The position numbers and the translations under genes were made by a program. Source: an uncultured virus (IMG/VR IMGVR_UViG_3300036800_000376) (lineage: Duplodnaviria; Heunggongvirae; Uroviricota; Caudoviricetes). From it: a stretch of 24,330 nucleotides of DNA. Location: the IMG/VR virus record IMGVR_UViG_3300036800_000376. The stretch is one strand, 5' to 3'. Shown piece after piece: positions 2,541 through 23,856 of the stretch (position 1 is its first letter; each line of letters opens with the position of its first letter). Under the pieces are notes generated by a model that searched no databases, was not told where the DNA came from, and saw nothing but the letters and a program-made list of their open reading frames with translations.

Positions 2541-2558
2541 GCATGCATGCATGCATGC
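2541..2558. repeat. (GCAT)n tandem repeat, 18 bp, self-complementary
   Basis: GCATGCATGCATGCATGC read directly. Confidence 0.9.
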
Positions 2559-2791
2559 TGAAAGCACGTCGGGGCCCGACTGGAAACTGCGAACTGCACA
2601 TTTCCTATGCGTCCCGTGGCCCCGCGGGCGCGCTAGGACCAGGCGAGCTGCGCAGCCAGGTCGTCCGCAGCGGGTTAGCGACGACGCCAGCGAGGCCGAG
2701 TGCGACAGTGATGACCGCGGCTCGACGTCGGGGTGAGCGAGCAGGGATTCCAGCGAGCCCCAAACGGACCTGGATGTCTAACATGAACGGT

Positions 2792-3325
2792 GTGGCGACG
2801 CTGCCCGTTCATCGCATCGATGCGGATGTCTACGGACGTATGGTTGTCTCGGGCGCGCTGGACGGCGAACCGGTCGAATTGCTCGACGGGGTGCTCTGCA
2901 AGATGAGCCCGCAGGGTCCGGCCCACGCTCTGGTCATCCAGCTGCTCACGCGGCACTTTGCGGCGGCAGAGGCGTGGCTCAGGGTGCAGTTGCCGCTCCA
3001 GGTCGCGAGCGACTCTGTGCCGGAGCCCGATCTTGCGCTGGTGGAGCACAGGCCAAATCCAGACGCGCACCCGACCAGCGCGCTCGTCGTCGTGGAGATC
3101 GCGGTGAGCTCCCACGAGATCGACCGTGGTGTCAAGACGCGCCTCTACGGCACCGCCGGCGTGCCTGTGTACTGGCTCATCGATCAGCCCCACCGATCGA
3201 TCGAGGTCCGCACGCAGCCGACGCCAGACGGTTATGCCGTGACCGACACGTACGGGCTAGGCGAGACGGTCCCCGCGCCTGCCGCCGGGGTCGGGACGCT
3301 CGAAATCGCCTGGCTGCTGGGTTGA
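2792..3325 (+). CDS. Uma2 family (DUF820) PD-(D/E)XK putative endonuclease
   Basis: VELLDG..MSP.GPAH, PEPDLALV, LVVVEIAVSS..DRGVK..LY..AGVPVYWLID. Start could be 2774, 2783 or 2792. Confidence 0.92.
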   Translation: MATLPVHRIDADVYGRMVVSGALDGEPVELLDGVLCKMSPQGPAHALVIQLLTRHFAAAEAWLRVQLPLQVASDSVPEPDLALVEHRPNPDAHPTSALVVVEIAVSSHEIDRGVKTRLYGTAGVPVYWLIDQPHRSIEVRTQPTPDGYAVTDTYGLGETVPAPAAGVGTLEIAWLLG

Positions 3326-3430: not shown

Positions 3431-3489
3431 CCCCGCGGCGTCGCGCTGGCCATCCCGCGGTAGGGGCCGCGAGGGCGCCAGCCGCGGGG
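3431..3489. terminator. Long imperfect GC-rich hairpin between convergent genes; possible bidirectional terminator
   Basis: CCCCGCGGC (3431-3439) pairs with GCCGCGGGG (3481-3489), with inner CTGGC/GCCAG and GCGG/CCGC pairing; no U tract. Confidence 0.35.
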
Positions 3490-3521
3490 GCTCGGTCGGG
3501 GCGCCCGTTGGTAGCAGCTCC

Positions 3522-3806
3522 TCAGGCCTCCGAAAGGCGTTTACAGGCGCCGGTGCGACGCTCGCCGGCGGCGCGCTCGCCTGACGCGGCGATTGTGCGG
3601 CTGCCTATCGGCCATCGCCTGGCAGAATCGGCCAAGATGCCCCCCATCGCGAACACGAGTAGCCACGTGCCTGTACGAAGTGAGGGCCCGAGCGCGACTT
3701 CGGCGATCGCGACCACGCACAGCCCCCCACCAACCAGGCGCATCGCGACGCCACCAAGAGCCCCGAACACCACCAGACCGACGAGAGCGACAGCGAGCGG
3801 GCTCAC
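3522..3806 (-). CDS. Small membrane protein, truncated or degenerate paralog of 3803..4267
   Basis: GTG start overlaps the upstream TGA (GTGA). MSPLAVALVGLVVFGALGGVAMRLVGGGL...GTWLLV aligns to the upstream gene, then diverges. Confidence 0.55.
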   Translation of the reverse strand: MSPLAVALVGLVVFGALGGVAMRLVGGGLCVVAIAEVALGPSLRTGTWLLVFAMGGILADSARRWPIGSRTIAASGERAAGERRTGACKRLSEA

Positions 3807-8263: not shown

Positions 8264-8502
8264 TTCGACTCGATCTCGGAGAGTTGTTTTACAGAGGTCT
8301 GCAATGGTCTAACCGCGAGTCTACACGCCAAGTTTGTTGGAACGCGCATCAAGTACCCAAACCGCGAACAACCTCGCAAGTTCGACTCGCAGCTTTCTGA
8401 TGTCCTCTTCTTACCCTGCTGGCATACAAACCGGAACCTCGGGCGGGAGCGCGCAGCGCTCTCGTCGAGGGACTGATACTGCGGCTCGCGGATCTCGGTC
8501 AA
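8260..8502 (-). CDS. Small hypothetical protein, possibly frameshifted
   Basis: AGGAGG RBS and a TTG start overlapping the xis-like stop; the 3' half has atypical codons. Confidence 0.4.
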   Translation of the reverse strand: MTEIREPQYQSLDESAARSRPRFRFVCQQGKKRTSESCESNLRGCSRFGYLMRVPTNLACRLAVRPLQTSVKQLSEIESK

Positions 8503-8798
8503 GTCGCCTCCTGAGGGCGCACCAGGCTAGGAGGCTCTTGCCACGTATCCACGGTCTCAGGGGTGCGCAGCTTTATCGGCCGCGTGTTCAGCGGGGATGC
8601 TCCTCCGCCGGCGGCGTCATCGACATTTCGCTCGCCTGCGATCAGCGCGTCGACTTCACTCTCCGGGATCCGGTATTCGCCGCCAATTCGGACGGCAGAG
8701 AGCCGGCCGCGCTTTATGTACTTGCGGACGGCTTGGGTCGTCATGTTGATCCGGCGGGCGACCTCGACGGTCGTCAGAAGCGGCTCTTGCTGCGTCAA
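8499..8798 (-). CDS. Excisionase-family (HTH_17/MerR-like) DNA-binding protein
   Basis: LLTTVEVARRINMTTQAVRKYIKRGRLSAVRIGGEYRIPESEVDALI; GGAGG RBS; TTG 8798 overlaps the upstream TGA. Confidence 0.9.
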   Translation of the reverse strand: MTQQEPLLTTVEVARRINMTTQAVRKYIKRGRLSAVRIGGEYRIPESEVDALIAGERNVDDAAGGGASPLNTRPIKLRTPETVDTWQEPPSLVRPQEAT

Positions 8799-9253
8799 CT
8801 TGACCTCCGTTGTTCGCCGATCGCGGGAACGAGGCCGTCCTCCACGGCTACAGCGCGCGCGAGTTGCTCGGCGGCACGCGCGAGCTCGGTGTATCCGCGC
8901 GCGACAGCTGCGAGGCTCCGCCCCTGGCTTACGCGGTTGAGCTCCTCGAGCGCTTGATCGAAGATCAACCACAGATCGGCTGGTCCTCGTCTGCCGGTCC
9001 CGCGCTGGAGCTCGTAGGGTGGATCCGCTGGCCGAACCGGTGGCCACTCGAATCCTGCCTCGTGTGCCGCAGCGCATGCGGTCGCTTGGTGCGCGCACGC
9101 GCGAGAGAGAGCTGCCAAGCGGCTACTGAACCCCGCGTCTGGCTGCGCCATGCGGTGCCCGCGGATAGCCTGAGCGAGTTCTTCTCCCGCCTGCTCGAAC
9201 TCGGCTTGTGCTCGGTCGGGATCGACCGTCCGTTCTGGATCCGCCGAGGACAT
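8795..9253 (-). CDS. All-helical hypothetical protein, paralog of the central domain of 1834..2515
   Basis: ATG 9253 just downstream of a promoter; motif RL..L......A..C..A.EAG.E...PP.EL.....R......W...D.A.E.L is shared with the left-hand gene. Confidence 0.8.
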   Translation of the reverse strand: MSSADPERTVDPDRAQAEFEQAGEELAQAIRGHRMAQPDAGFSSRLAALSRACAHQATACAAAHEAGFEWPPVRPADPPYELQRGTGRRGPADLWLIFDQALEELNRVSQGRSLAAVARGYTELARAAEQLARAVAVEDGLVPAIGEQRRSS

Positions 9254-9264
9254 AAGCGTCGGCA

Positions 9265-9294
9265 ATCGTAGCAAACAGGGCGAACAGGCGACAA
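9265..9294 (-). promoter_or_regulatory. Putative housekeeping-sigma promoter of the xis-like operon
   Basis: TTGTCG-18 nt-TACGAT with a TGn extension, 11 nt before ATG 9253. Confidence 0.55.
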
Positions 9295-9458
9295 GGTTTC
9301 TGGTTCAATGCGAGCGGGTGCGCAGCGCCACTTCCCCCGGCTGGCCGAGATGATCGACTGGCCGGCGGGGTCTGAACCCGGGAGCACCGACGCGCTTCGA
9401 GTTTTTGCCGCGCGAGCTCCATCTCGTCGCGCTCAGCGGTTTGCGCACGGCGTGCGAC

Positions 9459-9752
9459 TCAGGAATCGGGCGCTACAGAGGCGAGATCGGTGCGGCGAGG
9501 GTGATGCGACGCATCGTCGGCGACTACGATCGCGCTCGCGTATGGGCTACGTAGCTCTCCGGGGATGTGTTGTAGCCAGAACTCTGGTGCGTCCTGAAAC
9601 CTCACCGGGCCATTAGCGCCGAGCACCGTGATCTCCGCGGTGATCCGCCGCGCTTTCTCGGGGTCTGGCCCGCCGAACATCGTCTCGCCCGCCTCGTGAC
9701 GGGCGGTCGCGATTAGCTCGCCTTGACTGTAGAAGTGTGCCTCGACCATCAC
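9459..9752 (-). CDS. Small hypothetical protein, candidate immunity/antitoxin for the upstream kinase
   Basis: 97-aa globular-looking ORF 8 nt after the kinase stop; last gene of the operon. Confidence 0.7.
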   Translation of the reverse strand: MMVEAHFYSQGELIATARHEAGETMFGGPDPEKARRITAEITVLGANGPVRFQDAPEFWLQHIPGELRSPYASAIVVADDASHHPRRTDLASVAPDS

Positions 9753-9760
9753 TGCCTAGT

Positions 9761-10993
9761 TTACCGTAGGGAGAGGCTGGCGGGTAGGCGTTCGGTGTTG
9801 AGCATGTCGGCGATCCGCTCGCGCATCGCCTCCGCGCGTTCCTCGCCGATCATCGGCGCGACGCCAAGCAGGCTGGGGCTCGCGCCAAGCCGTTCGAGCG
9901 TCTCGATTTCGTGCGGGTCGAGGCGCCCGAAGCCCATGCCCACACGGTGCTCTTGAAGCTGCGTGGCGTTGACGGCACCCCCGGGCTTGTGGAACGCGAA
10001 CCCGTGGTCGATCAGGCTCAGGGACCCGTCATGATCGACCAGAAAGTTACCGGCGTGACGGTCGGTGTTCCCGCACACCGCGTCGAAGAACGCGGCATCG
10101 CTGACCTGTTGGAAGTCGGAGTCAGCTCGCCAATCCATCAGCATGCCGGGGGTGCCGTCACGGTGCGCTGAGAGCGCCGACATGCCGTGCTCGTCGTCGT
10201 AAGTGAGCGCCGTCGTCGGCACCATGTGCGTGTAGCGCTCCCCCATTGCGCAGGCTAGATGAAACGCGGCTGCTTCGTGGGTGGCCTGCTCGTGGCCGTT
10301 AACCCCGTAGTACCCGAGGATGTTCGAGGTGTCCTCCTGCTCGACGGGCTTCAGGTAGGCGGTTGAGCCATCCGCAAGTGTTATGCGCTCGACATCGTTG
10401 GCGGTGCCACCGAGAGGCTGGCGGTAGGTGATGGTGGTATCTGCGAGCGCCTGGGCGGCGGCCTGGCTGGCCTGGGCGGCGAGCACAGCCGCGATCCGCT
10501 CGCGCTCCTCCTCTGTCGCCTCGGTGCCGCCACCGACGTCGTCGTTCTCGTAGCTGGCTGTGGCGTCGTCCCAGCCGTCGCCCGCCGTGCCCGTCCTGGC
10601 GGGCTCGCTCGAGGCCGGCGCGGCGGCGGCGTGGTGTCCGCGACTGGGAGGTGGGGGTGGCGGGGGTGGCGGATCGCCCGGGCCGGGGCGCGAGTCGCCG
10701 GACACGCTTGTCGCGACGAGCTGCTGGCCGGCGACCGTCATCGCTTGGCCACCTCCGCTGGCCTGATGGCCGACCTGATGGTTCTGACCGCCGCACGCGC
10801 ACTCGCATTTCTCCCGGATCGCGTAATAGCACTGGGTGTAGCACCCTTGCCTGACCTCGGCAGGCATCAGCCCGCGCTGCCAGTATTCGCCGCCCTTCGC
10901 CTTTGATGTCGCCCACAAAAGCACTGGCATCCCTGGTGTGAGCCGCGTTTGCCCGGTCATGGCGTCAGGGACCGGCGCGACTGGGGGGATCAT
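9761..10993 (-). CDS. PI3/4-kinase/HipA-superfamily kinase with N-terminal Cys/His cluster
   Basis: LGGTAN loop, AYLKP (Lys), HEAAAFHL (Glu), VPTT, FFDAVCGNTDRHAGNFLV, LIDHGFAF; N-terminal CYTQCYYAIREKCECACGGQNH; ATGA-coupled to the ATPase gene. Confidence 0.85.
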   Translation of the reverse strand: MIPPVAPVPDAMTGQTRLTPGMPVLLWATSKAKGGEYWQRGLMPAEVRQGCYTQCYYAIREKCECACGGQNHQVGHQASGGGQAMTVAGQQLVATSVSGDSRPGPGDPPPPPPPPPSRGHHAAAAPASSEPARTGTAGDGWDDATASYENDDVGGGTEATEEERERIAAVLAAQASQAAAQALADTTITYRQPLGGTANDVERITLADGSTAYLKPVEQEDTSNILGYYGVNGHEQATHEAAAFHLACAMGERYTHMVPTTALTYDDEHGMSALSAHRDGTPGMLMDWRADSDFQQVSDAAFFDAVCGNTDRHAGNFLVDHDGSLSLIDHGFAFHKPGGAVNATQLQEHRVGMGFGRLDPHEIETLERLGASPSLLGVAPMIGEERAEAMRERIADMLNTERLPASLSLR

Positions 10994-12186
10994 GGGTGCG
11001 CCTGGAGGACGCTGAGTGCGAGCTGCTTGAGTGCGACGCGTGCGTGAGCGGGGATCTGGTCCATGTTGTACTCGCCGTGCTCGAGGGCGTTCTCGATCGT
11101 CTCGTTGGCGGGAATGAGCAGTGGCGCGAGCCCGGCCTCGAGGAATTCCTCTTTGAGGATCTCCAGGTCCGCATGTTGGTGGTCGCGGATGTTGTTGATG
11201 ACCGCGAGTACCGCTGTCGCTTGAGCCTGTTGCTTTTCGCTGTCGACGAGCGCGCGAGCGTTGCGCAAATACCGATAGCTGTAGAGGAATCCTGCGGTGG
11301 TCGCGATCGTGGCGCGGCTCACGAGCACCGCGACATCACACGTCTCGGCGAGCGTACGACCGACCGTGTTCTGTAGCCCGGCGCCGGCGTCAAGGATCAC
11401 GAGCGGGTACTGCTGTCGTAGCCGGATGGCGATGCGGCGCAGGATGTCCGGACGATCCATCATGAGCGCGAGCATGGGCGCGTGGTGACCGGTCGCGTAG
11501 AGATCGACACCTGAGGGAAGGGTGGCTGCGTGCTGCTCGGGTGGGGTGTCGGGGTCGGAGATGAGCTGGCTCATCTCGCCTCCCTCGGGGGCCAGCACGG
11601 ATAGGCCCGCGAGCTCGGCGTCGCAGTCGACGAGCGCGACTGGTCCGTGTCCGGCGCGCGCGAGGATATCTGCGATCGCGAGCGAGAGCGTGCTCTTCCC
11701 CACCCCGCCAGCGCAGCTCATCACTGCGATCGTTCCAGTCCTCCCGACGGCGGCGTGGATCTTGCGGTCAAGGTCGGTCTCGGCCTGTTCGGGTTGCTGC
11801 GCGCGGCGACCGCTCCTGACGGCCGCTGGGGCTAATGCGCGTACTTCGCGTTCGTGGCCGTCGGCGCGGAAGTCTCGGTTTTGCTCGACGGGGCGCACGC
11901 CAGGGTTTCGACGCGGGCGAACAGGACCCGCCGGGAGCATCGACACGCCGACTGCCGGCCGGTACGGTGCCGGGACTACTGGTTGGAGCTCTGGGACGAC
12001 GAAGGTGTCGGCCGGTGGCGCAGGGATGACGTGAGAGGCCTCCGCGACGGTGCCGGCATCGTCAGCCACGCGGATGATGGCGGGGTTCTCTGCGGCTTCG
12101 TGATCTCGTGGCGGTGGGGGCGGCTCTTCCTGGTGTGGACGCCAGGTCCACGCACCTTCGCGTTTGAATGCTGGCCTGTCAGGCAT
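10990..12186 (-). CDS. MinD/ParA-family ATPase with Pro-rich N-terminus (EspI/FlhG-like architecture)
   Basis: IAVMSCAGGVGKST, VALVDCD, YPLVILDAGAG, VLAVINN. Confidence 0.88.
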   Translation of the reverse strand: MPDRPAFKREGAWTWRPHQEEPPPPPRDHEAAENPAIIRVADDAGTVAEASHVIPAPPADTFVVPELQPVVPAPYRPAVGVSMLPAGPVRPRRNPGVRPVEQNRDFRADGHEREVRALAPAAVRSGRRAQQPEQAETDLDRKIHAAVGRTGTIAVMSCAGGVGKSTLSLAIADILARAGHGPVALVDCDAELAGLSVLAPEGGEMSQLISDPDTPPEQHAATLPSGVDLYATGHHAPMLALMMDRPDILRRIAIRLRQQYPLVILDAGAGLQNTVGRTLAETCDVAVLVSRATIATTAGFLYSYRYLRNARALVDSEKQQAQATAVLAVINNIRDHQHADLEILKEEFLEAGLAPLLIPANETIENALEHGEYNMDQIPAHARVALKQLALSVLQAHP

Positions 12187-13132: not shown

Positions 13133-14032
13133 TCAGCCTGTGGTGGTTGCAAACCCATCCCCCTCCCATCCTGTTGTCGTTTTGCGCATCACGAAAGTGA
13201 GCGTCAATGACTCGCCGTCGTCGATGACGGTCGCCGTTGCGGTGAATCGTCCGGCCTGGATCGGGCCGTAGTCGATCGACCCCAGCGACGCGGCGACCCC
13301 GGTCTGCCGTTGTCCTGCGAGGGGGCCACGCCCGGTGCGGATCTGGCGCAACGCTTGCAACGTCGCTCGCGGCAGGGCAGCACGCGCCCCTTCGGCATAG
13401 TCGACGTACCCGAGCACGAAGCTCACCGCCGTGGTGCGCGCCGCGTGAGGAACGCTCGCGGCGGGCGGGCGGGCCGGTGGCTTGGCGTCGTCGGTCGCGA
13501 GGTCAGGCGGGATGATCTGCGTGACTAGCCACCGTCCTCTCTCTCGGGTCGCGTCGACCGTGAAGGGGTATGTGTGAGACGTGTTCGCGGCGACTGCGAG
13601 GACTTGCGTGGAGTAGACGGTGGATCCCTGCTGCTCGTAGGACGCGAGTCGCAGCCGCCCATCGCGATCCGTCGGGGGGATCCGCCCGCCCCCTACCGCG
13701 AGGTTCCGCGCGACCACGCTCGAGTACGGCAGCGCGCGCGCGGACGTCATCCCGCTCAGGTACGCGATGTAGGCCGCAACGAACGCGTGAACCACGTGGC
13801 CCGAGTCGGCCGCTGTGAGGCCACCTGAGGGCTTGTGAGCGGGCACCTGGGGCGTTGTGGTGGCCGTGGTCGGAACGGTCGGCGCCGGCGCGCTCGCGGC
13901 GGCGTGTTTCCTCACAGGCGTGGGATGGGGCGAGCCGTGACTCGAGAGCGCCGCTACGGCCACCAAAGCGCAGATCGCCGGGAGGGCGGCTAGCGCGACT
14001 TTCCTGGCCGTGGTGCGATGTGAGGGTCTCAA
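13133..14032 (-). CDS. Membrane-anchored protein with two putative NTF2-like (VirB8/TcpC-like) domains
   Basis: TTG 14032 overlaps the hydrolase stop (TTGA); TM helix; two repeats of F...Y..Y..G...LP ... aromatic-x-strand-W. Confidence 0.75.
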   Translation of the reverse strand: MRPSHRTTARKVALAALPAICALVAVAALSSHGSPHPTPVRKHAAASAPAPTVPTTATTTPQVPAHKPSGGLTAADSGHVVHAFVAAYIAYLSGMTSARALPYSSVVARNLAVGGGRIPPTDRDGRLRLASYEQQGSTVYSTQVLAVAANTSHTYPFTVDATRERGRWLVTQIIPPDLATDDAKPPARPPAASVPHAARTTAVSFVLGYVDYAEGARAALPRATLQALRQIRTGRGPLAGQRQTGVAASLGSIDYGPIQAGRFTATATVIDDGESLTLTFVMRKTTTGWEGDGFATTTG

Positions 14033-15516
14033 AAGCCTGGTGGGTGTCGTTGGACGTAGCCGGCGGTGCTCGATCCGGGCTGGTTTCCCCAGCGTGGCCC
14101 GTCGGATGGTGCTTGCGGGGGTTGCGGCGGCGCGTTCTCCCGACCCAACTGGGTATCGAAATAGATCCCTGCGACCTCGATGAACACATGCCCGCTGGTG
14201 GAGAACGTCGTGATCCATTTCCCTGGGCCCGGATCGCCGCGAATGGAGAAGTCGCCCGATACCAGAATCTGGCCGCCGAGGATGCTCTGCTGAAAACTAG
14301 TGCCCCAGAACAGATATGACGTGGCGCTCGAGCAGTCGTAGCCGGGCACGCCGTACTCCTCGGCGCCGGGGACCGCGGCGGGGTCGGGATTGCTCGCGCT
14401 CATCGTTTGCGCGGGGGCGCCGTGCGCGCCGCCGTAGCTGTAGCCAAAGTGGGCGATGCGGTTCCCGGCGGCGATCATTGCCTGCACTACGGGCGGAGCG
14501 TACGCCGGCGCCACAGCAAGCCCCGTTTTGGGGTCGATGATCGCCTTGGACCCTGGCACTGTCGGCCCGCCTCCGGTCGTCGGCGCGCAGGTGCTGGAGG
14601 ACGGTGTTGCCGTGGCCGCCGCCCCGGACGGGCTCGTGACGGTGGCTACGGGCCCCGCGCCGGTTTGCTGCGTCTGGCCCGCTTGCCCGTTCTGTGCGCT
14701 GGCGCCGCCGGTCGTCGCTTGGGTAGTAGCTCCGGTCCGGGCTGGAGCGGCCGTTGTGGAGGTCGAGGTCGGCGTCGTTGTGGAGGTGGGTGTGGTCGAG
14801 GTGGGATTCGGGCATGAGCACGACGTGCCTTGCCCCGACGTCGTGCCGCCAGCCTGCGACGTCGTCGGGGTCGCGGTCGGTGAGGTGGACTGGGCCGGTG
14901 TGGTCAGTGAGACGGGTACCGCGGTCGCGGGTGGGAGGCTTGGCGGGTGACCGTTCCACGCGGCGCTGATGGCCGCTGTCAGCGTCTGCACGCCCGTCGG
15001 GCCGAGATAGGTCGCGGCCGCGGCCTGCACCTCGGCGACGTACCACCCCGCGTGGTTGTACGCAAGGATCGCCGTCGGCCAGTTCCCTGGCGCGCCGGAA
15101 GCGTGCAGGTAGTTCGCGGCGCCGTAGATCGCGTCCTGCGCGTCGTAAACGTCCGGTGTCCCACCGGGATTAGACACAGCGACCCCGTACTTCGCCCAGG
15201 TGCCGGGCTCGAATTGCATCCACCCGATCGCGCCCGCCGACGAGGTGTTCATGTTTGTCCCGAAGCCGGTCTCGATCTTGTTGATCGCCGCGAGATACGC
15301 GTACCCGTCCGGGCCGAGCCCGTACCGTTGCGAGGCGGCCATGTAGTACTGCACCAGCGGGGGTTCGCCTGTGTACGACACCGGCTGAGCTGTCGTTGTC
15401 GCGCCGCATCCCGAAGCGGCATCGGTGACCACGGGGACGCTGGCGAACACCACCGCGAGCGCGATTCCACACAACGCCACGATCGAGGTCCCGGTGCCCA
15501 GCAGCACCCATCTCAT
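14029..15516 (-). CDS. Conjugative cell-wall hydrolase: lytic transglycosylase plus NlpC/P60-like peptidase (CwlT/TcpG/VirB1 analog)
   Basis: LAAINKIETGFG, SSAGAIGWMQF...TW, AIYGAANYL, AILAYNHA; Thr-rich linker; YSYGG, YDCSSATS, GHVFI. Confidence 0.92.
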   Translation of the reverse strand: MRWVLLGTGTSIVALCGIALAVVFASVPVVTDAASGCGATTTAQPVSYTGEPPLVQYYMAASQRYGLGPDGYAYLAAINKIETGFGTNMNTSSAGAIGWMQFEPGTWAKYGVAVSNPGGTPDVYDAQDAIYGAANYLHASGAPGNWPTAILAYNHAGWYVAEVQAAAATYLGPTGVQTLTAAISAAWNGHPPSLPPATAVPVSLTTPAQSTSPTATPTTSQAGGTTSGQGTSCSCPNPTSTTPTSTTTPTSTSTTAAPARTGATTQATTGGASAQNGQAGQTQQTGAGPVATVTSPSGAAATATPSSSTCAPTTGGGPTVPGSKAIIDPKTGLAVAPAYAPPVVQAMIAAGNRIAHFGYSYGGAHGAPAQTMSASNPDPAAVPGAEEYGVPGYDCSSATSYLFWGTSFQQSILGGQILVSGDFSIRGDPGPGKWITTFSTSGHVFIEVAGIYFDTQLGRENAPPQPPQAPSDGPRWGNQPGSSTAGYVQRHPPGF

Positions 15517-15927: not shown

Positions 15928-18813
15928 TCAGGGAGTCCCGTTGGGTGGTGGTAGCGGTGGTGGTGACGGTGGTTTGCGCTCGGCGTCGCGGACGAGTCGT
16001 TGCAGCTCGTCGCCGAGCTCGGGAGCGTTGGGCGACAGCGCACCTGGTGGTGAAGGTGGTGGCGCGTCTCGACGAGTTGGTGGCGCTTCGCGCGATCCGT
16101 TCCCGGGGCGTGGCGTTGGCGTGTCGTGCTGCTGTGTGCGGTGAGCTTCGGCGGCGGCAGCTCGGTTCGCTCGTGAGGTCTGGGCGGTTCTCGCGAGCTC
16201 GTCTCGCTCCGCGTCGGGTTTGACCTCGCGTAGCCGTGCGGCGACGTGGGGCATGTTTTCGCTGTCCGCGAGGGCGGCTGCTCGTTCGCGCTGGTCTGCG
16301 GTCATTGCTGAGGCGAGCCGTTCGGGGGAGTGGCTGCCCAGCCGGTTCAGGGACGTTTGGAGGCGTTGGCGGTCCTCCCGCTGGCCGGCGGCGCCACTGG
16401 GAGCGCTTGGGGTGCGGAGCTCGCCGTGCGCGGCTTCGACCTCGTCGACGTCGTCGAGGACGCGATCGGTTTCGACTCCAGGGAGATCCGCGGTGCCGCT
16501 GCCGCCGTCGGGGAGGGATCCCGGGGCGAGTGGGTCGATGGGCCCGTCAGGACCCTCTCCGTTCGGTGACGGGGGGGTGTCTGGCGGCCGGTCGTCTGCT
16601 GCTCCTCCTGGCGACGGTGGCGGCGGTGGTGGCGGGCTGTCGGAGGTGCCTGCCCCGGACTTTGGTCCGCGGCTGCCGAGACCGAAGGCTCCGAGGATGG
16701 CGCCGCCGGCGGCGCTGACACCGGCGGTTGCTGCGATGGCGGTGCCCTTGGCGGTCTTGCTGCCCATCCGCGCGAGGCGGGTTCGGCGGTATGCGCGGGC
16801 GAACTCGTCGCCGGCTGACCCGTCCTGCGGCTGGTGGCTCGTGAGCGCCTGGTTGAAATGGCCGACAAGCTTGCGGCGTTTCGCCATGACGACCCAGAAG
16901 AACGCGATCTGGATGAGGTACTCGAAAAGCCATCCGAAGCCGGTTAGTTGCGCGGCGCCGATGATCCCGAACTCGATCGTCAACAGAACGACGAGCACGA
17001 GCGCGTAGATGAACTTGCGGATGAGGGCTGTGAGCATCCTCTTCCCCCACAGGTAGAAGAGTTGGTGGCCGCGGCCTGGGAAGAGCCCGGCGAGGAGGAG
17101 CACAGGGAGCACCACGAGTCCGAACAGCACCTCGAGCTGCGCGACGACGACCCCGATTGAGAGGCCACCGAGGATGAACACCAGCGGGATGGACCCGATC
17201 AGCACGAGGACTGCGACGGCCAGGCGTTGGCCTTGTGCGTTCTCGAGTTGCGCGTCGACGGCCGGGGTGTCTGGCCAGTTCACCGCGAGCGCTTTCTGGA
17301 GGCCCATCCCGAGGGGGTCGGATTGGATGCCGGGGGTGGATTGCTGCTTGGCGGAGACCTCCTCGATTGCAGTGAAGATCTCGTTGCGCATCCCGCCGAT
17401 CGGGGAGGCGGCAGGCGACGACCCGCCGGCCTGCGACCACACCGACAGGCTCGAGTTGACGTTCGGTGCGAGCGCGCCGTTCGGGTGACCGTCGAACGGA
17501 CCGATCTTGCAGCTCGGGTTGGTGCCCTCCGGCACCAGCATCTGAAACTGGTGGTTGACGAGCTTGTTCTCGTTCGCGAGAAGAGCGGCTTGCTCGAGCT
17601 GGAGGTCGCACTGTGGGTTGTCGGCCTCGAGGTACCAGTCGGCGTATTTCTGGTTCGGGATCGGGTGCGTAGTGACGTGCTTGGAGCCGGGGTAGGGTGC
17701 GCATCCGGTCGCACCGGAGGTGGGGTCAGCGACCGAGATCCCCGCGTTGGGGCCGGCTGGCGCGTTAGCGGTGCAATGGTCGAGCCCTCCGAAGTCGAGG
17801 ATCTCGAACGGCTGGAAGACCGCGAGTTTGAATAGGGCGTCTTGTGCGGTGAGGAGCGATCCTTGGTTGGTTTGGAGGCCGCCGGCGCCGGAGTTCACTG
17901 GCGTGTCTGAGGCGACGGTCGCGGTGAGCGATAGGGCGCTGTCGGCGAGCTGGTTGGTGGTGTCCGCGGCCCATCCGATCGTGTTCGCGGGGTCGGCGAT
18001 GATCGCGAGCGCCGCCGCGTAGATCAGCACCGAGACCGCGACCCCCGCGAGGGTCCGAACGTATCGTTGCTTGACCAGCCCGTTCCACAGCGCGTAGAGA
18101 CCGATCGCGGCGAAGGTGACGAACAGCACGTCCTGGAAAGGACCGGCGTGGAAAAGGCCGCTCACGGCGCCGTGGAGCCCGTTGAGTAGCCCGACACCGT
18201 GTGTGAATTGCGATCCTCCCGTGCCTGGCGCGCTGGTGATGAGGTTTAGCGAGAACGCGAAGCCGAAGATGAGGAACGCGATGTGCAGCCCTAGCAGCGC
18301 GAGCTCCCACAGAATCCACGAGATCGTGTAGAACGCGAGCGCTGGGAGGCCGGAGAGATCGATCCCGGTGAGGCCGACACTGACCCCTCCGATGTGCTGA
18401 TCGAGGTCATAGGACCCCCAGGGGTAAGCGCCGTAGTAGCTTCCGACGCATGGTGCGGCCGCGCCGGTGTTGGTTACGCATTGCGTTTGGGGTGCGTTGA
18501 AGTCGAGGAGGTCGGTGCCGTGGTAGGCGTAGTCGCCGTACGCGCCGGCGACGCCCGCTATCGGGACCGAGATCACCGCCGCGAGCGACCCGATCACCAG
18601 CACCCGACGAGCCACCCGAAGGCCTGCAGCGAGCCGGCGCCGCTGCGGCGCCCGGGCCCGCCGGCGAGCGATCCACCGCTCGAGCGCGGACCCGCGGACC
18701 CGCGCATCAATCCGCGCGATAGTCCACGCCACCCCAAGCGCGGTGGCTGCCACAGCCACCGCGTTTATGAGCGCCCACAGCAGCCCGCCGCTGGCGGTCG
18801 TTCCGCTCGTCAC
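15928..18813 (-). CDS. VirB6/TcpH/ConG-like polytopic conjugation channel protein
   Basis: Many TM segments, an extracellular Cys-containing loop, LFGLVVLPVLLLAGLFPGRG..F..W motif, Pro-rich cytoplasmic tail; follows VirB4 with a GTGA overlap. Confidence 0.85.
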   Translation of the reverse strand: MTSGTTASGGLLWALINAVAVAATALGVAWTIARIDARVRGSALERWIARRRARAPQRRRLAAGLRVARRVLVIGSLAAVISVPIAGVAGAYGDYAYHGTDLLDFNAPQTQCVTNTGAAAPCVGSYYGAYPWGSYDLDQHIGGVSVGLTGIDLSGLPALAFYTISWILWELALLGLHIAFLIFGFAFSLNLITSAPGTGGSQFTHGVGLLNGLHGAVSGLFHAGPFQDVLFVTFAAIGLYALWNGLVKQRYVRTLAGVAVSVLIYAAALAIIADPANTIGWAADTTNQLADSALSLTATVASDTPVNSGAGGLQTNQGSLLTAQDALFKLAVFQPFEILDFGGLDHCTANAPAGPNAGISVADPTSGATGCAPYPGSKHVTTHPIPNQKYADWYLEADNPQCDLQLEQAALLANENKLVNHQFQMLVPEGTNPSCKIGPFDGHPNGALAPNVNSSLSVWSQAGGSSPAASPIGGMRNEIFTAIEEVSAKQQSTPGIQSDPLGMGLQKALAVNWPDTPAVDAQLENAQGQRLAVAVLVLIGSIPLVFILGGLSIGVVVAQLEVLFGLVVLPVLLLAGLFPGRGHQLFYLWGKRMLTALIRKFIYALVLVVLLTIEFGIIGAAQLTGFGWLFEYLIQIAFFWVVMAKRRKLVGHFNQALTSHQPQDGSAGDEFARAYRRTRLARMGSKTAKGTAIAATAGVSAAGGAILGAFGLGSRGPKSGAGTSDSPPPPPPPSPGGAADDRPPDTPPSPNGEGPDGPIDPLAPGSLPDGGSGTADLPGVETDRVLDDVDEVEAAHGELRTPSAPSGAAGQREDRQRLQTSLNRLGSHSPERLASAMTADQRERAAALADSENMPHVAARLREVKPDAERDELARTAQTSRANRAAAAEAHRTQQHDTPTPRPGNGSREAPPTRRDAPPPSPPGALSPNAPELGDELQRLVRDAERKPPSPPPLPPPNGTP

Positions 18814-21251
18814 GCGGGCACCGCTTCGAGCTGCCTTTGGGACGTGTTGAACGCTTCGAGCATCGCTGGCTCGAGGTCGAACTGGACTTCGCCGAGGCGC
18901 CCGTGGATGTCGCGCATCAGGCAGAGGCCCTTCTTGTAGCCGCGGACACGGCTGATCCGTCGGGTGCCGGCGTCGGGGAGTCCGACCTGCTCGAGCGCGG
19001 CGCGGGCGTCAGCCTCGGTTGGCTGCCCGAAGATCATGTAGGTGCCGATGAGGCTCGAGAGGTCCCCGATGTCGGCTAGTCGCTGGGTGGCGATCACGAT
19101 GACTGCGTTCATCGCGCGGCCCATTCGCACCAGGCGCTGGAAGAGCGCGCGTCCTTGCGCGCTTGCGAGCAGGAACCACGCCTCGTCGACGATGATCACC
19201 TTGTTGCGGGTGGGGTCGCCGGACACGAGCCGGAGCGCCATGTCAGCCAGCAGTCCGAGTGTCGCGACCCCGATCCGCTCCCGGTCTGAGTAGCTCTCCC
19301 GGGTTTGGGATGCGTCGGGGAGATCGAGCGTTGGGGTGCGAATGCTCGTGAGCATCGCCCGCGCCGAGATGGTGTCATCGCCGGGGGGTCCGAATGCGAG
19401 TTTCGCGAGCCCGAAGTCAGCCCACGAGGCGAGCTCCTCCGCGACGGCGGTCGCGATCGTTCCGCCGGCGCGGAGACGATCGATCACCGCGAGTGACCCC
19501 CATTCGGCGTGGTGCATGCACTCGCGGATCGCTTTCGTGAGCGCGGGGCGGGCGCCCTGTTGGCGCATCGTGCCGTCCCCGACGAGCTGCGTGAAGTAGC
19601 TCATCGCGGCCTCCTCGCGCACTTCGGGGAGCGGGACGCGCATCGGGTCGAGTTGCCCGCGGTTCGCGTCGCCGCTGGAGAGCTCGAAGTGGCTCACGAG
19701 ATGCCCGATTGGGGCGTACTTGTGGAACCCGTGGTCGGGTTTGGGGTCGATGTCGACGACCTGGCTGCCGCGGAGCAGCGCTGTGGTGGCGATGCTCTGC
19801 AGGCTGACGGTCTTGCCTGACCCGAGATCGCCGGCGAGGAGGACCGCGGATCCGGCGTTCTCGCGGGAGGGCTCGGTCACGTCGAACTTGACCACTCGGC
19901 GGGTGACCGGCGTGTATCCGACGTAGGGGCCTTCGAGGCTCCCGACCGCGGTGGTGGCCATCGGGACCATCACCCCGATCTGCTCAACGGTCAGTGGGTC
20001 ATCCCACTCGTGCACCGCGGAGCCGCAGCGTGGGAGGTGCTCGTAGTACAAGCGGCGCTGGATACCGGAGGGGCGGTGCACGGTCAGCGGCCGATAGGCG
20101 TCCTTGATCTTGGTGACTCGCCGTTCGAGTTCTTTGTGCTCGGGAGCGCCGACGATGAGTTGCAGGGAGCCCGTCATCAGCGGCGGGTGGTCCTCGCGAT
20201 CGAGGTAGGCCTGCAGCAGGCGCGCTACTTGCCGGGTGTCTCCCGCGGTCCAGGACTCGCCGAGGATTCCGGATTCCTCCTCGCGGGAGCTGTTGTCGAC
20301 GTCGAGGGTCCGGCGGCGCGCTTCGCGGCGCGCGCGCTCGTTGCTCATGTACTTCCAGTGGAGCGCGCAGTCGACGGGGAACTCGAGGCGCTCGAGGGGC
20401 GCGAACATAAGCTCGCACTGAGGGCCGGGCCAGGGAGGATGTTCGGGTAGTGCCCCGAGCACGAGCGCTGACTGGTAGGAGGTGCCGTGCTCGGATTCGA
20501 CCTCGAGGTGCGTGTCGTGGCGGGTGATTCTCGCCTTCGCTGCGCGGTCGATGATGGTGCTCAAGGGCCGGTAGGACCGGTTGGTGCCGTCGTCATCTGA
20601 GACCACGAGGGCTCGTGGGCGCCAGAACTCGTCGAGCTCGGGCTCAGCGAGCCCGCGGCAGCGTGCGCGCGCGAGGAGCCATTGGATCTCGCGGGTGTCC
20701 GCGCGGTCGATACCGATCTCCCCGAGCGGGCCCTGCAGCTGGTCGAACAGGGTGCTTTCCTGGTCGCGGATCGTGACGAGCTCGTCCTCCATGACCGGCG
20801 CGGCGGATTGCACGCCGGCGGCGGACTCAACGCGGCGGCTGATCCTCCATAGCGCACGGCGGGTTTCCGCGATCATCGCGGCCGCGTCGGTGGACTCCGG
20901 TAGGCGGATCGCGAGGTAGACCTCGACGTCGCGAGGGTTCAGCCGGTCGATGAGATGCTCGTGCCAGTTGACATGCCAGCGCCATATCGGCTCGTCGGCG
21001 TAGCGGGTGTCGACCGTCCGGGCGGCCTGGCGGGCGTAGTGCTCGGCGGGGTAGCTGCGGCACACTCTCCAGATCGATCCGTCGCTTCGCGCTTCCATCG
21101 CGGCGAGCGCGAGGGACGCTGCGACCTCATATTTCTGCTGGTCGGTGAGGAACTCGTATGAGGTGTTCTGCAGGCGGTAGAGCGCGCGGCGCTCGCCACC
21201 GTGACCGAACAGGATGTTCCCGTCGACGTGGGTGACTCCGAGCATCCTCAT
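18810..21251 (-). CDS. virB4: VirB4-like conjugative ATPase (TcpF/ConE type)
   Basis: 813 aa; Walker A GDLGSGKT, VVDIDPK, Walker B IIVDEAW, VRMGRAMNAVIVIATQ, GLCLMRDIHGRLG. Confidence 0.93.
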   Translation of the reverse strand: MRMLGVTHVDGNILFGHGGERRALYRLQNTSYEFLTDQQKYEVAASLALAAMEARSDGSIWRVCRSYPAEHYARQAARTVDTRYADEPIWRWHVNWHEHLIDRLNPRDVEVYLAIRLPESTDAAAMIAETRRALWRISRRVESAAGVQSAAPVMEDELVTIRDQESTLFDQLQGPLGEIGIDRADTREIQWLLARARCRGLAEPELDEFWRPRALVVSDDDGTNRSYRPLSTIIDRAAKARITRHDTHLEVESEHGTSYQSALVLGALPEHPPWPGPQCELMFAPLERLEFPVDCALHWKYMSNERARREARRRTLDVDNSSREEESGILGESWTAGDTRQVARLLQAYLDREDHPPLMTGSLQLIVGAPEHKELERRVTKIKDAYRPLTVHRPSGIQRRLYYEHLPRCGSAVHEWDDPLTVEQIGVMVPMATTAVGSLEGPYVGYTPVTRRVVKFDVTEPSRENAGSAVLLAGDLGSGKTVSLQSIATTALLRGSQVVDIDPKPDHGFHKYAPIGHLVSHFELSSGDANRGQLDPMRVPLPEVREEAAMSYFTQLVGDGTMRQQGARPALTKAIRECMHHAEWGSLAVIDRLRAGGTIATAVAEELASWADFGLAKLAFGPPGDDTISARAMLTSIRTPTLDLPDASQTRESYSDRERIGVATLGLLADMALRLVSGDPTRNKVIIVDEAWFLLASAQGRALFQRLVRMGRAMNAVIVIATQRLADIGDLSSLIGTYMIFGQPTEADARAALEQVGLPDAGTRRISRVRGYKKGLCLMRDIHGRLGEVQFDLEPAMLEAFNTSQRQLEAVPA
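19741..19837. repeat. 97-bp direct repeat, copy 1 (VirB4 Walker A region)
   Basis: 88 of 97 nt identical to 22240-22336, ungapped, by manual alignment. Confidence 0.95.
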
Positions 21252-21850
21252 CGCTGGCCTCCGCGGACACGCAGCCGCTCCCCGGCCTCCACGCGGACCA
21301 TGGCGACGCCGCTGGGGTCGTCCTCGTGTAGCGGGGTGATCTCGTGGCGGCGGTGGCGGTAGCGCAGTGCGACCGGATCGCGGGTGTAGACGGTCGCTGG
21401 GCCGGTGATTTCGCCGTCGAGGAGGATTGGCCAGTCCGGGCCGGGCGCGAGCGTCACGGTCTCATCGAGCACCTCGGCGATCCCGGCTCTCGGGAGGCGC
21501 TCCTCGCCGTAGAAGTGCTTGCCCGCGAAGTGCTCTGAGATCAGCGACGTCCAGTGTCGGTGGGGCATCCTGCCGTGCGGGCGGTAGCGCGCTCCTACGT
21601 ACGCTCCGGCGGCCGGGATGAGTGTGAACGCGATCTCTGGTGGGACCGCGCCGGCTAGCAGGTCGATCCCGGGGATGTTGCGCGCGAGGAAGACGAGCGC
21701 GATCGCTGCGATGAAGTAGGCGGCACCCCAGATCGGGATCCCTCCGGGGACGGGGATCCGCCACTCTCCTTGCCCGTTTGGGATCGCGTAGACGCGGCGC
21801 TCGAGGCGATACACGCGACGCCACGACCGCACCTCCATTTCGCCCGCCAT
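21248..21850 (-). CDS. tcpE: TcpE-family conjugal transfer membrane protein (VirB3-like)
   Basis: SWRRVYRLERRVYAI...WRIPVPGGIP, two TM helices, PHGR motif; directly upstream of VirB4; GAAGGGAG RBS. Confidence 0.85.
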   Translation of the reverse strand: MAGEMEVRSWRRVYRLERRVYAIPNGQGEWRIPVPGGIPIWGAAYFIAAIALVFLARNIPGIDLLAGAVPPEIAFTLIPAAGAYVGARYRPHGRMPHRHWTSLISEHFAGKHFYGEERLPRAGIAEVLDETVTLAPGPDWPILLDGEITGPATVYTRDPVALRYRHRRHEITPLHEDDPSGVAMVRVEAGERLRVRGGQR

Positions 21851-21884
21851 GCCGGTTCTCCCTTCCTCCGCGGCGTTCTCGGGG

Positions 21885-22355
21885 TCAGCCCGAGAAGAAG
21901 CTCGAGACCTGGTTCCCGAGCGCGGTGAGGTGCCCGAGGGGGTCTCCGATGACCCATCCGACTAGCGCGCCAGCGACGATCGCGACGAGCAGCTTTCCGT
22001 GCTCGGCGCGGCCATAGTGCTTGAGCGCCATCGCGCCGACCGCGATCGCGAAGATCCATGGGATCCAGTCCTGCCAGAGCTGCTTGAGGTTCGCCGATCC
22101 GCCCTTGAATGGATCCGTCCCGCCCGTCGCCGCGGCGGCCGTCGCGGGATGCGCGATCAGGAGCGCGCCCACGAGGAGCGTGGCGGCTGTCGCGAGTGCG
22201 ATCCAGGTCGAGCGTGATTGATGACGCTGCTGCTCGGCCTTGGGGTCGACGTCGACGACCTGGCTGCCGCGAAGCAGCGCCGTGATGACGATGCCCTGCA
22301 GGCTGACGGTCTTGCCTGACCCGAGCCTGCCGGCGAAGTGTGTCCTCGGTGACAT
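21885..22355 (-). CDS. TcpD/VirB2 pilin-like membrane protein with an extra VirB4-derived N-terminal segment
   Basis: AGGAGG RBS before ATG 22355; signal-like helix ending PATAAA, then two hydrophobic helices and a DP motif; sits between tcpC and tcpE. Confidence 0.75.
   Translation of the reverse strand: MSPRTHFAGRLGSGKTVSLQGIVITALLRGSQVVDVDPKAEQQRHQSRSTWIALATAATLLVGALLIAHPATAAAATGGTDPFKGGSANLKQLWQDWIPWIFAIAVGAMALKHYGRAEHGKLLVAIVAGALVGWVIGDPLGHLTALGNQVSSFFSG
22240..22336. repeat. 97-bp direct repeat, copy 2 (inside the pilin-like gene)
   Basis: Encodes AGRLGSGKTVSLQGIVITALLRGSQVVDVDPK. Confidence 0.95.
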
Positions 22356-22386
22356 TGCTCTTCCTCCTGCTGATTGGACGGTGCCG

Positions 22387-23262
22387 TTATTGGCCATCGA
22401 TCGACGTCACGATCCATCGGTCGAGCTGCTTGACCGCGAGCTGGTACTGCAAGGGGTATGTCGCCCCGGTCGTGGTGTCCCCCACCTGGACGCTCGCGAG
22501 AACTTCCATGCTTCCGTCCGGGTTTGTGTAGAGCTCCTGCGTGTTGGTGACCGACTCGAACTTCAGGCCAGCTGACGGTTCGGGGAGGTTCGCGGTGGGC
22601 GCCTCGTAGTAGGTCAGGTCCTGGCCCGCGAAGTACGCCGAGAAGAACTGTGTGAGAAGGGTGCTTACGCCGGCGGGTGCTGGCGGGGCGCTCGCGAGCT
22701 CACCGGGCGGTCCGGGAGCGGTCGGGTCCACCGCGGGCGGAGCCGTGAGGGATGGTTCGGCGAACACCGCGATGCCCGCTTGGGTTTGTGCGACCGGGAC
22801 CGCGAGATACCGCTCGACCTGGTGGCCGCGAACGGCCACGACCGCGTTGACCGTGATCAGCGCGTGGTTTGCGTTGCCGTCTTGGGCCCAGGTCACGGGT
22901 TCGGCGCTTGTCACGTACGAGCTGTAGTTGCCTGGGCTCGCGACGCTCGCGTTCGCGCCGGTCGCGAAGAATCGTTGCGCCGATCCGTCCCCGTTCGTCG
23001 TTCCAACGGAGAGGTAGTCCCGCGCGAACGCGGTCGCCGCCCACAGCATCTGCGGCGAGGGCGTGAACGCTGCGGTGCTGGAGCGTTCGTACACGCGCGA
23101 GGCGGTTGAAGGGCGAACAATCGCGACCACGCCACGCGCGATCACCAAGAAGATCACGAACCACACGACGTACCGACCGATGCGCCGCAAGGGCAGGTTC
23201 ACCGGCGCCGGGTGAAGCGATCGACGCTGACGCTTCAACAAGGACCCAGGCTCCGGCGACAT
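22387..23262 (-). CDS. tcpC: TcpC-family conjugal transfer protein (VirB8-like)
   Basis: N-terminal TM, ATAFARDYLS, RYLAVPV...P.L...P, LTQFFSAY...LTYY, Y.L......RW.VTSI. Confidence 0.9.
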   Translation of the reverse strand: MSPEPGSLLKRQRRSLHPAPVNLPLRRIGRYVVWFVIFLVIARGVVAIVRPSTASRVYERSSTAAFTPSPQMLWAATAFARDYLSVGTTNGDGSAQRFFATGANASVASPGNYSSYVTSAEPVTWAQDGNANHALITVNAVVAVRGHQVERYLAVPVAQTQAGIAVFAEPSLTAPPAVDPTAPGPPGELASAPPAPAGVSTLLTQFFSAYFAGQDLTYYEAPTANLPEPSAGLKFESVTNTQELYTNPDGSMEVLASVQVGDTTTGATYPLQYQLAVKQLDRWIVTSIDGQ

Positions 23263-23268
23263 CTGTAT

Positions 23269-23297
23269 ACCGTACCAAACACAGCGATGCAGAACAA
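23269..23297 (-). promoter_or_regulatory. Putative promoter of the transfer operon, leaderless
   Basis: TTGTTC-17 nt-TACGGT with a TGn extension, 6 nt before ATG 23262; no RBS. Confidence 0.6.
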
Positions 23298-23357
23298 ACA
23301 GGGCAATCACCCGGTCTTACGGTGTCGTGGCCTGACGAGAGGGCACGACGCGAGGGG

Positions 23358-23374
23358 CCTCCGCTAACGGGAGG
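23358..23374 (+). other. Candidate oriT nick-site hairpin (MOBT/Rep_trans type)
   Basis: CCTCC-GCTAACG-GGAGG; CTAAC in the loop of a GC-rich hairpin, as at ICEBs1/Tn916 nic sites. Confidence 0.35.
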
Positions 23375-23459
23375 TTCGTGAGCCCTTACGTGCGCGCGCC
23401 TCCGGGTGAGATGTGGCCCCGCACGCGCGGTGTGAGATCGGCGAGGCGGGAGAACTCGG

Positions 23460-23491
23460 GGGGGTCCCGCCGGCGGGGGCTTGGGACCCCC
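23460..23491. repeat. Inverted repeat with 9-bp arms
   Basis: GGGGGTCCC-14 nt-GGGACCCCC. Confidence 0.8.
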
Positions 23492-23538
23492 TCAGGAGCG
23501 ATCGCGGTGAGGCTGTTCACTGCCGCGGGGCTCTCCTC

Positions 23539-23674
23539 GAGAAGCGCATTTCCATCGCCATCACCACCACAGGTCCCGCGTATGGGCAGGGGACATTCGC
23601 GGTACGCCAGCGGTCGCGTGTCAGGGGAAGGGGCGCGACCGGTCGGCAGCGATGACGATGAAGATGCGCTTCTC
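23539..23674 (-). ncRNA. Putative structured RNA (or ssDNA) element: 31-bp closing stem with two inner hairpins
   Basis: 23539-23569 pairs with 23644-23674, giving 24 Watson-Crick pairs, 6 G-U and 1 mismatch on the minus strand. Confidence 0.45.
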
Positions 23675-23856
23675 CCGGAGCGCGTAGCGGACTCGTGTGC
23701 GACTGCTGATTACTCGTGTCAGACTAGCGCACTAGTGTCGGCGGCGCCACGGGGCGAACGTCCGTGCGGGCCGCGCGGGCGCAGCCGGCTTGTCTGCGAT
23801 CGGCGGCGGGGCTGGCGGCGGATCGTGGTCCGGGAGCTCTTCCCGGACGGGCTCGT

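Follow-up and report, generated by a model that had tools for sequence, protein, structure and literature searches.

The 24,330-nucleotide stretch of DNA analysed here (hereafter, the window) is held in IMG/VR as the uncultured virus record IMGVR_UViG_3300036800_000376, and it contains a conjugation operon of the Gram-positive type (Tcp / MPF_FA) in which tcpC, tcpD, tcpE and tcpF(VirB4) all lie on the minus strand. Within this operon, the 5' end of the gene for a small membrane protein, TcpD, contains an in-frame copy of about 100 bases from a neighbouring gene, that of the conjugation ATPase VirB4/TcpF. The copy derives from the element's own virB4 and, as far as can be judged from the relatives surveyed, is a one-off that is specific to this lineage. 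We consider it probable that the insert is the neutral scar of a templated insertion made during repair, which arose once and was tolerated.

A VirB4 Walker A segment at the N-terminus of TcpD

A repeat search returned one family of direct repeats, at 19732–19837 and 22231–22336, with a length of 106 nt, 89% identity (94/106) and a spacing of 2499 bp; when the region was compared with itself by blastn, the pair scored E 1.2e-34, which excludes a chance similarity. This pair is the sole substantial dispersed repeat of the window, and the similarity between the copies ends abruptly at both junctions. The 12 differences over 106 positions leave a longest exact run of 30 nt and no common 31-mer; the 30-nt core that they have in common is found at exactly two places in the window, with matches in 0/100 shuffles. 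Over a 97-nt core (19741–19837 and 22240–22336) the copies differ by nine mismatches and are thus identical at 88/97 positions.

Each copy is part of a gene on the minus strand, and the reading phase is the same in both. The source copy encodes the Walker A motif (P-loop) of VirB4/TcpF together with helix 1 and the strand that follows, corresponding to residues 473–504 of the 813-aa protein (AGDLGSGKTVSLQSIATTALLRGSQVVDIDPK). The ectopic copy encodes residues 8–39 of the 156-aa TcpD (AGRLGSGKTVSLQGIVITALLRGSQVVDVDPK), the N-terminus of which is matched by a fragment of the Pfam family AAA_10. In comparison to the source, the copy carries five amino-acid changes and, within the 97 nt, two silent changes; a third silent difference (AAG/AAA) falls at 22239, the base adjoining the 97-nt core. 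A preliminary description of this DNA had given the same coordinates, counts and spacing for the repeats, and had stated that TcpD residues 8–39 mirror VirB4 residues 473–504 with five replacements, two silent changes and an intact GSGKT motif; all of this is confirmed.

The tcpD-family gene (21885–22355, minus strand) starts at ATG 22355, in agreement with the database gene call (156 aa), and the ribosome-binding site AGGAGG, correctly recognized in the preliminary description, is present 7 nt upstream of this codon (22368–22363, minus strand). The next in-frame ATG, GTG or TTG lies inside the hydrophobic core of TcpD, and the copy stays in frame because the sole usable start codon is upstream of the insert. 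Read from the sequence, the segment is without stop codons in all three phases, and the retention of the source phase is therefore a one-in-three coincidence.

The protein that received the insert matches the TcpD domain model of NCBIfam (TcpD_dom, NF040686) over residues 94–154 with a score of 39.9 bits, above the cut-off of 24. Among its sequence relatives, P0125 (29.6 bits) and P0128 (24.2 bits) also pass this cut-off, and P0127 (21.6 bits) fails. The earlier label of a pilin-like protein accordingly gives way to TcpD, and what is left of it is a resemblance below threshold: assignment to the TrbC/VirB2 pilin family (Pfam PF04956) was considered and rejected at 21.2 bits, under the gathering threshold of 27.9. 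Comparable scores recur at the TcpD position in related loci and proteins, namely 27.7 bits for L073 (3057–3362), 16.4 bits for L001 (2965–3270) and 19.1 bits for P0125. These recurrent near-threshold matches hint at a distant relationship between TcpD and VirB2.

Source, divergence and distribution of the copy

In both copies the GSGKT motif is followed by the residues VSLQ. Within a set of 131 proteins, 91 VirB4 homologue segments matching the motif were recovered, and VSLQ was present in two of them, both corresponding to the window's own protein; VirB4 relatives with 64–78% identity have VSAQ or VAAQ in its place. Because the copy and the resident gene both carry the otherwise unique VSLQ, the source is the element's own virB4. 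The confinement of VSLQ to the window lineage further indicates that the segment was taken from the resident virB4 lineage after its split from the 64–78% identical relatives.

Since its origin the copy has drifted, and on the evidence of its substitutions it evolves without the constraint that is typical of VirB4. The ratio of non-synonymous to synonymous divergence (pN/pS) is 0.79 over the 32 codons (6.8 non-synonymous and 3.2 synonymous differences), a value that was calculated from 10 differences and whose error is very wide. Four of the five replacements (R3, G14, V16 and I17) are seen at the corresponding positions in 0/91 VirB4 homologues, and the authentic VirB4 segment is identical at 30/32 residues to each of the relatives P0006 and P0130. 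Under random change, an intact GSGKT would be expected in 20% of cases and an unchanged run of at least 30 bases in 30%.

Some of the differences between the copies fall within a hairpin. DNA folding places this hairpin at 22298–22330 (minus strand), with the arms GCAGGCT (22330–22324) and AGCCTGC (22304–22298), which are fully complementary in the copy only; the source reads GCGATCT at the first of these positions. Where virB4 has GAT the copy has AGG, and these three neighbouring changes create the perfect 7-bp inverted repeat; an A-to-G change that replaces serine with glycine adds one more pair, so that four of the ten copy–source differences strengthen the hairpin. Its energy, calculated with DNA parameters, is −12.3 kcal/mol in the copy versus −6.8 kcal/mol in the source, and for the 98-nt RNA the values are −43.5 and −37.2 kcal/mol, respectively. 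In a post hoc test on this one sequence, 1.7% of 3000 random variants of the source with ten substitutions attained the folding stability of the copy. For the 5' region of tcpD as a whole, the folding z is −3.0, and the ribosome-binding site is not strongly paired. Template switching associated with quasipalindromes is a known class of mutation, described in work on E. coli (PMC7202029), and the change from GAT to AGG is probably a correction of this kind.

The distribution of the insert was examined in 160 related loci (80 from metagenomes and 80 from species genomes, VirB4 39–48% identical). Alignment-based scans of contigs had returned 80 metagenome, 80 genome and 1 viral loci, all with 36–48% identity, and a single-protein scan of genome contigs with VirB4 found no relative. 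By self-blastn (E ≤ 1e-5), a second Walker copy or comparable dispersed direct repeat was present in 0/160 loci, the other self-matches being palindromes, one tandem-like repeat and a few weak matches of 32–83 nt. The tandem-like repeat, in L067 (1047–1533), measures 351 nt with 80% identity and an offset of 144, and is situated upstream of the tcp genes. In L061, L062, L066, L068 and L072, a self-complementary stretch of 100–116 nt (74–82%) is found at around 3436–3549, inside the tcpE-like gene upstream of virB4.

Open reading frames (ORFs) at the TcpD position were identified with a hidden Markov model (HMM) in 136 of the 160 loci, which left 24 without a match, some of them for lack of upstream flank. 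These ORFs have a median length of 103 aa when the longest reading is taken, with 108/136 at or below 130 aa, and the Walker A motif GxxxxGK[ST] occurs in 0/136. Their homology to the window's TcpD family is supported by profile–profile comparison (hhalign probability 95.7%, E 8.4e-9), and an HMM built from 15 TcpD-position proteins of distant loci had no match to the window TcpD at E ≤ 1e-3. Profile–profile comparison alone detected the homology.

Closer relatives were sought with the 117-aa body of TcpD in a HMMER search of 1.84 billion representatives, which returned five proteins at E ≤ 0.001: the window protein, P0125 (46% identity, 120 aa), P0127 (36%, 123 aa), P0128 (39%, 123 aa) and an 872-aa repetitive protein. 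When TcpD or P0125 was used in word-based protein searches, nothing beyond the query itself was found. In the alignment, a gap takes the place of the Walker segment in 4/4 relatives, these being P0125, P0127, P0128 and the cluster mate P0129 (124 aa). Subtraction of the 32 inserted codons brings the window TcpD to 124 aa, within the family size of 120–124 aa. P0127 is probably encoded next to P0007, a VirB4 with 64% identity to that of the window, to judge by the equal length (8224) of their longest contigs. The preliminary description had proposed to check whether homologous pilins carry the segment, and the answer from both the TcpD-position ORFs and the sequence relatives is that none does.

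The site of insertion lies in a variable part of the protein. Hydropathy analysis indicates three hydrophobic stretches in all five members of the TcpD family, with an AxA motif directly after the first. In the window TcpD the first stretch comprises residues 50–75 (22137–22208, minus strand) and ends with A71-T72-A73; the corresponding motifs of the relatives are AMA at 34 in P0125, ALA at 39 in P0127 and AHA at 41 in P0128. The N-termini of the family do not align, and the region before the first hydrophobic stretch measures 6, 12, 17 and 19 aa in the four homologues versus 49 aa in the window protein. The hydropathy of the insert itself (1.45) is under the value of 1.6 used to call membrane stretches. 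The first hydrophobic stretch appears to be the core of a signal peptide followed by an AxA site of the signal-peptidase type, with predicted cleavage after A73.

Origin of the insert and alternative readings

The reading that we favour supposes a single illegitimate event, in which a break at the start of tcpD would have been repaired with a short stretch of nearby DNA. About 96 nt of the element's own virB4/tcpF, 32 codons that specify the P-loop with helix 1 and the strand after it, would in this way have been duplicated at the 5' end of tcpD, 2.5 kb upstream, whether by templated insertion of the non-homologous end joining (NHEJ) or synthesis-dependent strand annealing type, or by a template switch during replication. 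The abrupt ends of similarity at both junctions are what illegitimate joining is expected to leave, and the combination of a short insert from nearby DNA (96–106 nt, 2.5 kb away) with illegitimate junctions is that of an NHEJ-type scar. According to a study of Streptomyces ambofaciens, NHEJ scars contained inserts of 42 or 83 bp derived from DNA near the break (Hoff et al. 2018, PMC5869714). Ku was detected above cut-off in 5/5 genomes tested from the related order Solirubrobacterales. The survival of the insert would be explained by the need to keep tcpD in frame and by its place ahead of the first hydrophobic stretch, the one portion of TcpD that can vary freely. Should cleavage occur at the AxA site, the fragment would be removed with the leader and mature TcpD would be unchanged. 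The fragment is not an ATPase, and its later drift includes the one three-base, quasipalindrome-like change. Of the options put forward in the preliminary description, the scar of a duplication is the one out of three that finds support.

Several points weigh against this account. The breadth of the error on pN/pS has been given above, and the stability of the fold in the copy could reflect selection on a hairpin in the 5' mRNA or DNA rather than pure drift. The absence of the insert from relatives rests on loci that are more distant than P0006 and P0130 (VirB4 77–78% identical), plus P0127. If TcpD keeps its first helix, the insert would be a permanent cytoplasmic tail of about 50 aa.

Finally, the same end state could also have been reached in two steps, an origin that would likewise leave a neutral scar and that we regard as rather unlikely. 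A tandem duplication of 2499 bp, with a unit made up of the tcpD body, tcpE, the N-terminal half of virB4 and the Walker segment, would have been followed by an in-frame deletion that took out most of the first copy, with the exception of its Walker end, now fused to codon 7 of tcpD. The spacing and direct orientation of the repeats are exactly those that a collapsed tandem duplication leaves, and both junctions would be illegitimate, as they would be in the one-step model. However, two rare events would be needed, the second of them imprecise and yet in frame, whereas homologous recombination normally resolves tandem duplications with precision. The window contains nothing else that is left over from a second unit, and one-step capture of 42–83 bp from nearby DNA is on record from experiments in an actinobacterium (PMC5869714).

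Could the fragment have a function of its own? In such a case TcpD would remain uncleaved, and its cytoplasmic tail would bind phosphate ligands or nucleic acid, or dock on the VirB4/TcpF hexamer by mimicking the hexamer's P-loop region. The GSGKT motif and the following helix are intact, the source frame is kept, Pfam recognizes the segment as AAA_10 (29.5 bits), and the copy has persisted to about 10% divergence without insertion or deletion. Against this, the keeping of the frame is forced by the upstream start codon and by TcpD itself, which is reported to be needed for transfer (PMC12857230; PMC8043184), and the chance survival of GSGKT and the replacements foreign to VirB4 have been described above. 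The match to AAA_10 extends over 51 of 362 profile positions (15–65) and includes the Walker A motif; the complete fold of a P-loop NTPase, with Walker B and catalytic residues, is not present, and the remaining protein is the TcpD membrane body. Nothing similar is found in the 136 TcpD-position ORFs or the four family members. An AlphaFold2 (AF2) model, poor overall with a predicted local distance difference test (pLDDT) score of 55, has residues 6–36 as coil below 50. A functional role as such a tail is, on balance, very unlikely, and the earlier suggestion of a leader mimicking a P-loop finds no support in a segment that is an AAA_10 fragment only, is free of VirB4 constraint and is absent from every relative examined.

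There is a similarly slim prospect that the captured fragment has been co-opted, either as a membrane-tethered tail that binds nucleotide or single-stranded DNA or plugs into the TcpF/VirB4 hexamer, or through the strengthened hairpin at 22298–22330, which would tune the translation of tcpD. If true, a membrane protein would here be caught in the act of acquiring a module from part of the catalytic core of the adjacent ATPase.

Two further proposals of the preliminary description are left to consider. The first, module replacement, can be pictured as a block comprising tcpD, tcpE and the N-terminal half of virB4 that would have been swapped in from another element by recombination at the Walker segment, with a stray copy left behind. 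The Walker segment is a plausible crossover site because it is the most conserved stretch of VirB4, as seen in the comparison with P0006 and P0130. No step in identity is observed at the segment for the three closest relatives: the N-terminal and C-terminal parts of VirB4 have identities of 359/471 (76%) and 230/304 (76%) to P0006, 365/470 (78%) and 220/305 (72%) to P0130, and 284/471 (60%) and 205/308 (67%) to P0007. The guanine-plus-cytosine (GC) content is also flat across both junctions, and module replacement is therefore unsupported. Moreover, the lineage-specific VSLQ is common to the copy and the resident virB4, and a swap by homologous recombination would leave no extra copy at the start of tcpD. 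We regard this origin as highly improbable.

The second proposal, a recombinational off-switch for transfer, fares no better. Recombination or single-strand annealing between the copies would delete tcpD, tcpE and the N-terminal half of VirB4, placing an ATPase domain of 348 aa behind the ribosome-binding site of tcpD and releasing a 2.5-kb circle. Geometry and frame do permit this, as the repeats are direct and in the same phase, and the size of about 348 aa calculated for the product in the preliminary description is correct (7 + 341 = 348 aa, in frame). However, with 89–91% identity and at most 30 nt of perfect match the copies are a poor substrate for recombination, no recombinase is associated with them, and the outcome would be an irreversible loss of transfer and hence a dead element. 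The arrangement is met with in 0/160 related loci and 0/136 TcpD-position ORFs. Among the listed contigs of two sequencing runs, X1 and X2, none has the joint of an inter-copy deletion, although contigs lose rare variants and the evidence is accordingly weak. Such a switch has, in our view, very little to recommend it.

The same two runs bear on the accuracy of the assembly. A contig of 10,548 nt from run X1, made with a different assembler at a depth of 18, covers 18000–23491 with 0 differences and 0 gaps and spans both copies. X1 contains all sampled words of the stretch, and it may be the source sample. Run X2, a soil metagenome from another study, has short contigs that are identical to the window between 18405 and 21452, including 19664–19814; there are 0 differences in the six pieces listed, and none of the listed pieces covers the tcpD copy at 22231–22336. 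The identical contigs in X2 place the element, or else its host, in more than a single sample. Mis-assembly is unlikely because an independent contig spans both copies and their longest exact common run is 30 nt; since they share no 31-mer, the repeats create no ambiguity in a de Bruijn graph. The earlier argument that the divergence speaks against an assembly artefact is supported. A chimeric join or misplaced reads as the cause of the second copy is scarcely credible, even for a metagenome-type contig whose sole full-length counterpart, X1, may come from the same sample, given the identical second assembly, the 12 positions of difference and the position of the copy, in frame inside an intact gene with its own ribosome-binding site.

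The conjugation operon and comparison with known systems

The genes flanking tcpD support the assignment of the operon, and all lie on the minus strand. Upstream is a gene of the VirB8-like TcpC family (22387–23310; Pfam TpcC, 52.1 bits, cut-off 27). Between the two repeat copies is a tcpE-like gene (21248–21850) for a membrane protein of 200 aa, identified by homology to ORFs of the related loci; the protein has no direct Pfam or NCBIfam match. By tblastn it is homologous to the ORF that directly precedes VirB4 in 66 of 80 related loci, and three of four such ORFs tested pass the Pfam TcpE cut-off. The VirB4/TcpF-type ATPase (18810–21251, 813 aa) matches Pfam AAA_10 with 191.3 bits and NCBIfam ATPase_TcpF with 210.8 bits (E 2.6e-62), the latter under the curated cut-off of 1100 bits. 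It has 290 homologues at E ≤ 1e-10, mostly of about 800 aa, and its nearest named relatives are from Solirubrobacterales.

Downstream of virB4, in the position of VirB6/TcpH, is a large membrane protein of 961 aa (15928–18813), with a sub-threshold match to the NCBIfam CD3337/EF1877 mobilome membrane protein (E 7.8e-21; 74.4 bits, cut-off 120). The position of TcpG/VirB1 is occupied by a cell-wall hydrolase (14029–15516) in which the Pfam domains SLT_2 and SLT both score above their cut-offs.

No promoter-like site was found in 21700–23500. In the gap of about 550 nt between the start of tcpC (23310) and a minus-strand ORF ending at 23857, there is an inverted repeat (23523–23690) with arms of 40 nt, 78% complementary and 88 nt apart, which may be a regulatory region or one resembling an origin of transfer. 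A Pfam and NCBIfam scan of the window placed other cargo or maintenance genes of the element within 8499–12186 and at 2543–3325. These encode an excisionase-type helix-turn-helix protein (8499–9098), a PI3/PI4-kinase-like protein of the SCO1664 family (9761–10993), a ParA/CpaE-like ATPase (10990–12186) and, on the plus strand, a Uma2-family endonuclease (2543–3325). In a close relative with 78% identity (P0008, P0131 and P0130), VirB4 is found as pieces of 609 aa and 195 aa on one contig of 78,805 nt; the 609-aa piece diverges at its end after about residue 600, and a cluster mate on another contig is intact at 826 aa. To judge from these pieces, the sister element looks as though it has a broken virB4.

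The system is an ordinary Tcp / MPF_FA operon, and with the insert it adds one more case to a mutational class already known; it opens no long-standing question. Its value is that of a clean natural example in which an essential transfer gene has received, in frame, about 100 bp of an adjoining gene. The origin of the segment is identifiable through the unique VSLQ, the site is evidently tolerant, and the later mutational history can be read, including the probable quasipalindrome correction. The example also shows that about 30 extra residues can be accommodated ahead of the hydrophobic core of TcpD.

The closest known counterpart of the operon is the tcp locus of pCW3 from Clostridium perfringens, which encodes a type IV secretion system of the MPF_FA class. 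The gene order is the same (tcpC, tcpD, tcpE, tcpF(VirB4), large membrane protein, hydrolase), and the window's TcpD, like that of pCW3, is a small membrane protein, matching NF040686 above cut-off. TcpD and TcpE of pCW3 are described as small membrane proteins needed for transfer (PMC12857230; PMC8043184). The window TcpD differs in having a 32-codon fragment of the adjoining ATPase gene in its N-terminus, which makes it 156 aa long against 120–124 aa in its relatives, and whereas the host of pCW3 belongs to the Firmicutes, the host clade of the window appears to be high-GC Actinomycetota.

Conjugative pilins of the VirB2/TrbC/TraA type have cleaved leader peptides of about 50 aa. The predicted architecture of the window TcpD resembles theirs, with an N-terminal hydrophobic stretch with AxA and then two hydrophobic helices, and hydropathy and the AxA motif agree with this arrangement; the AF2 model is too poor for a comparison of folds. 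In contrast to these pilins, the window TcpD scores below the family threshold and its cleavage is a prediction. To our knowledge, no pilus has been described for MPF_FA systems.

The hairpin in the copy has the signature of quasipalindrome-associated template switching as characterized in E. coli, namely adjacent changes that turn an imperfect inverted repeat into a perfect one (PMC7202029). The window provides a single case, polarized solely by comparison with the source copy.

For the insertion itself, the nearest likeness is to the repair scars of S. ambofaciens, also an actinobacterium, in the size of the insert and its nearby source (PMC5869714). Those scars were obtained experimentally at I-SceI cuts, whereas the event in the window is ancient and in frame within an essential transfer gene, with a repair pathway that we infer from its outcome. 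The virB4 fragment in tcpD would thus be the natural counterpart of the short, nearby-templated insertions found at repaired breaks in laboratory actinobacteria.

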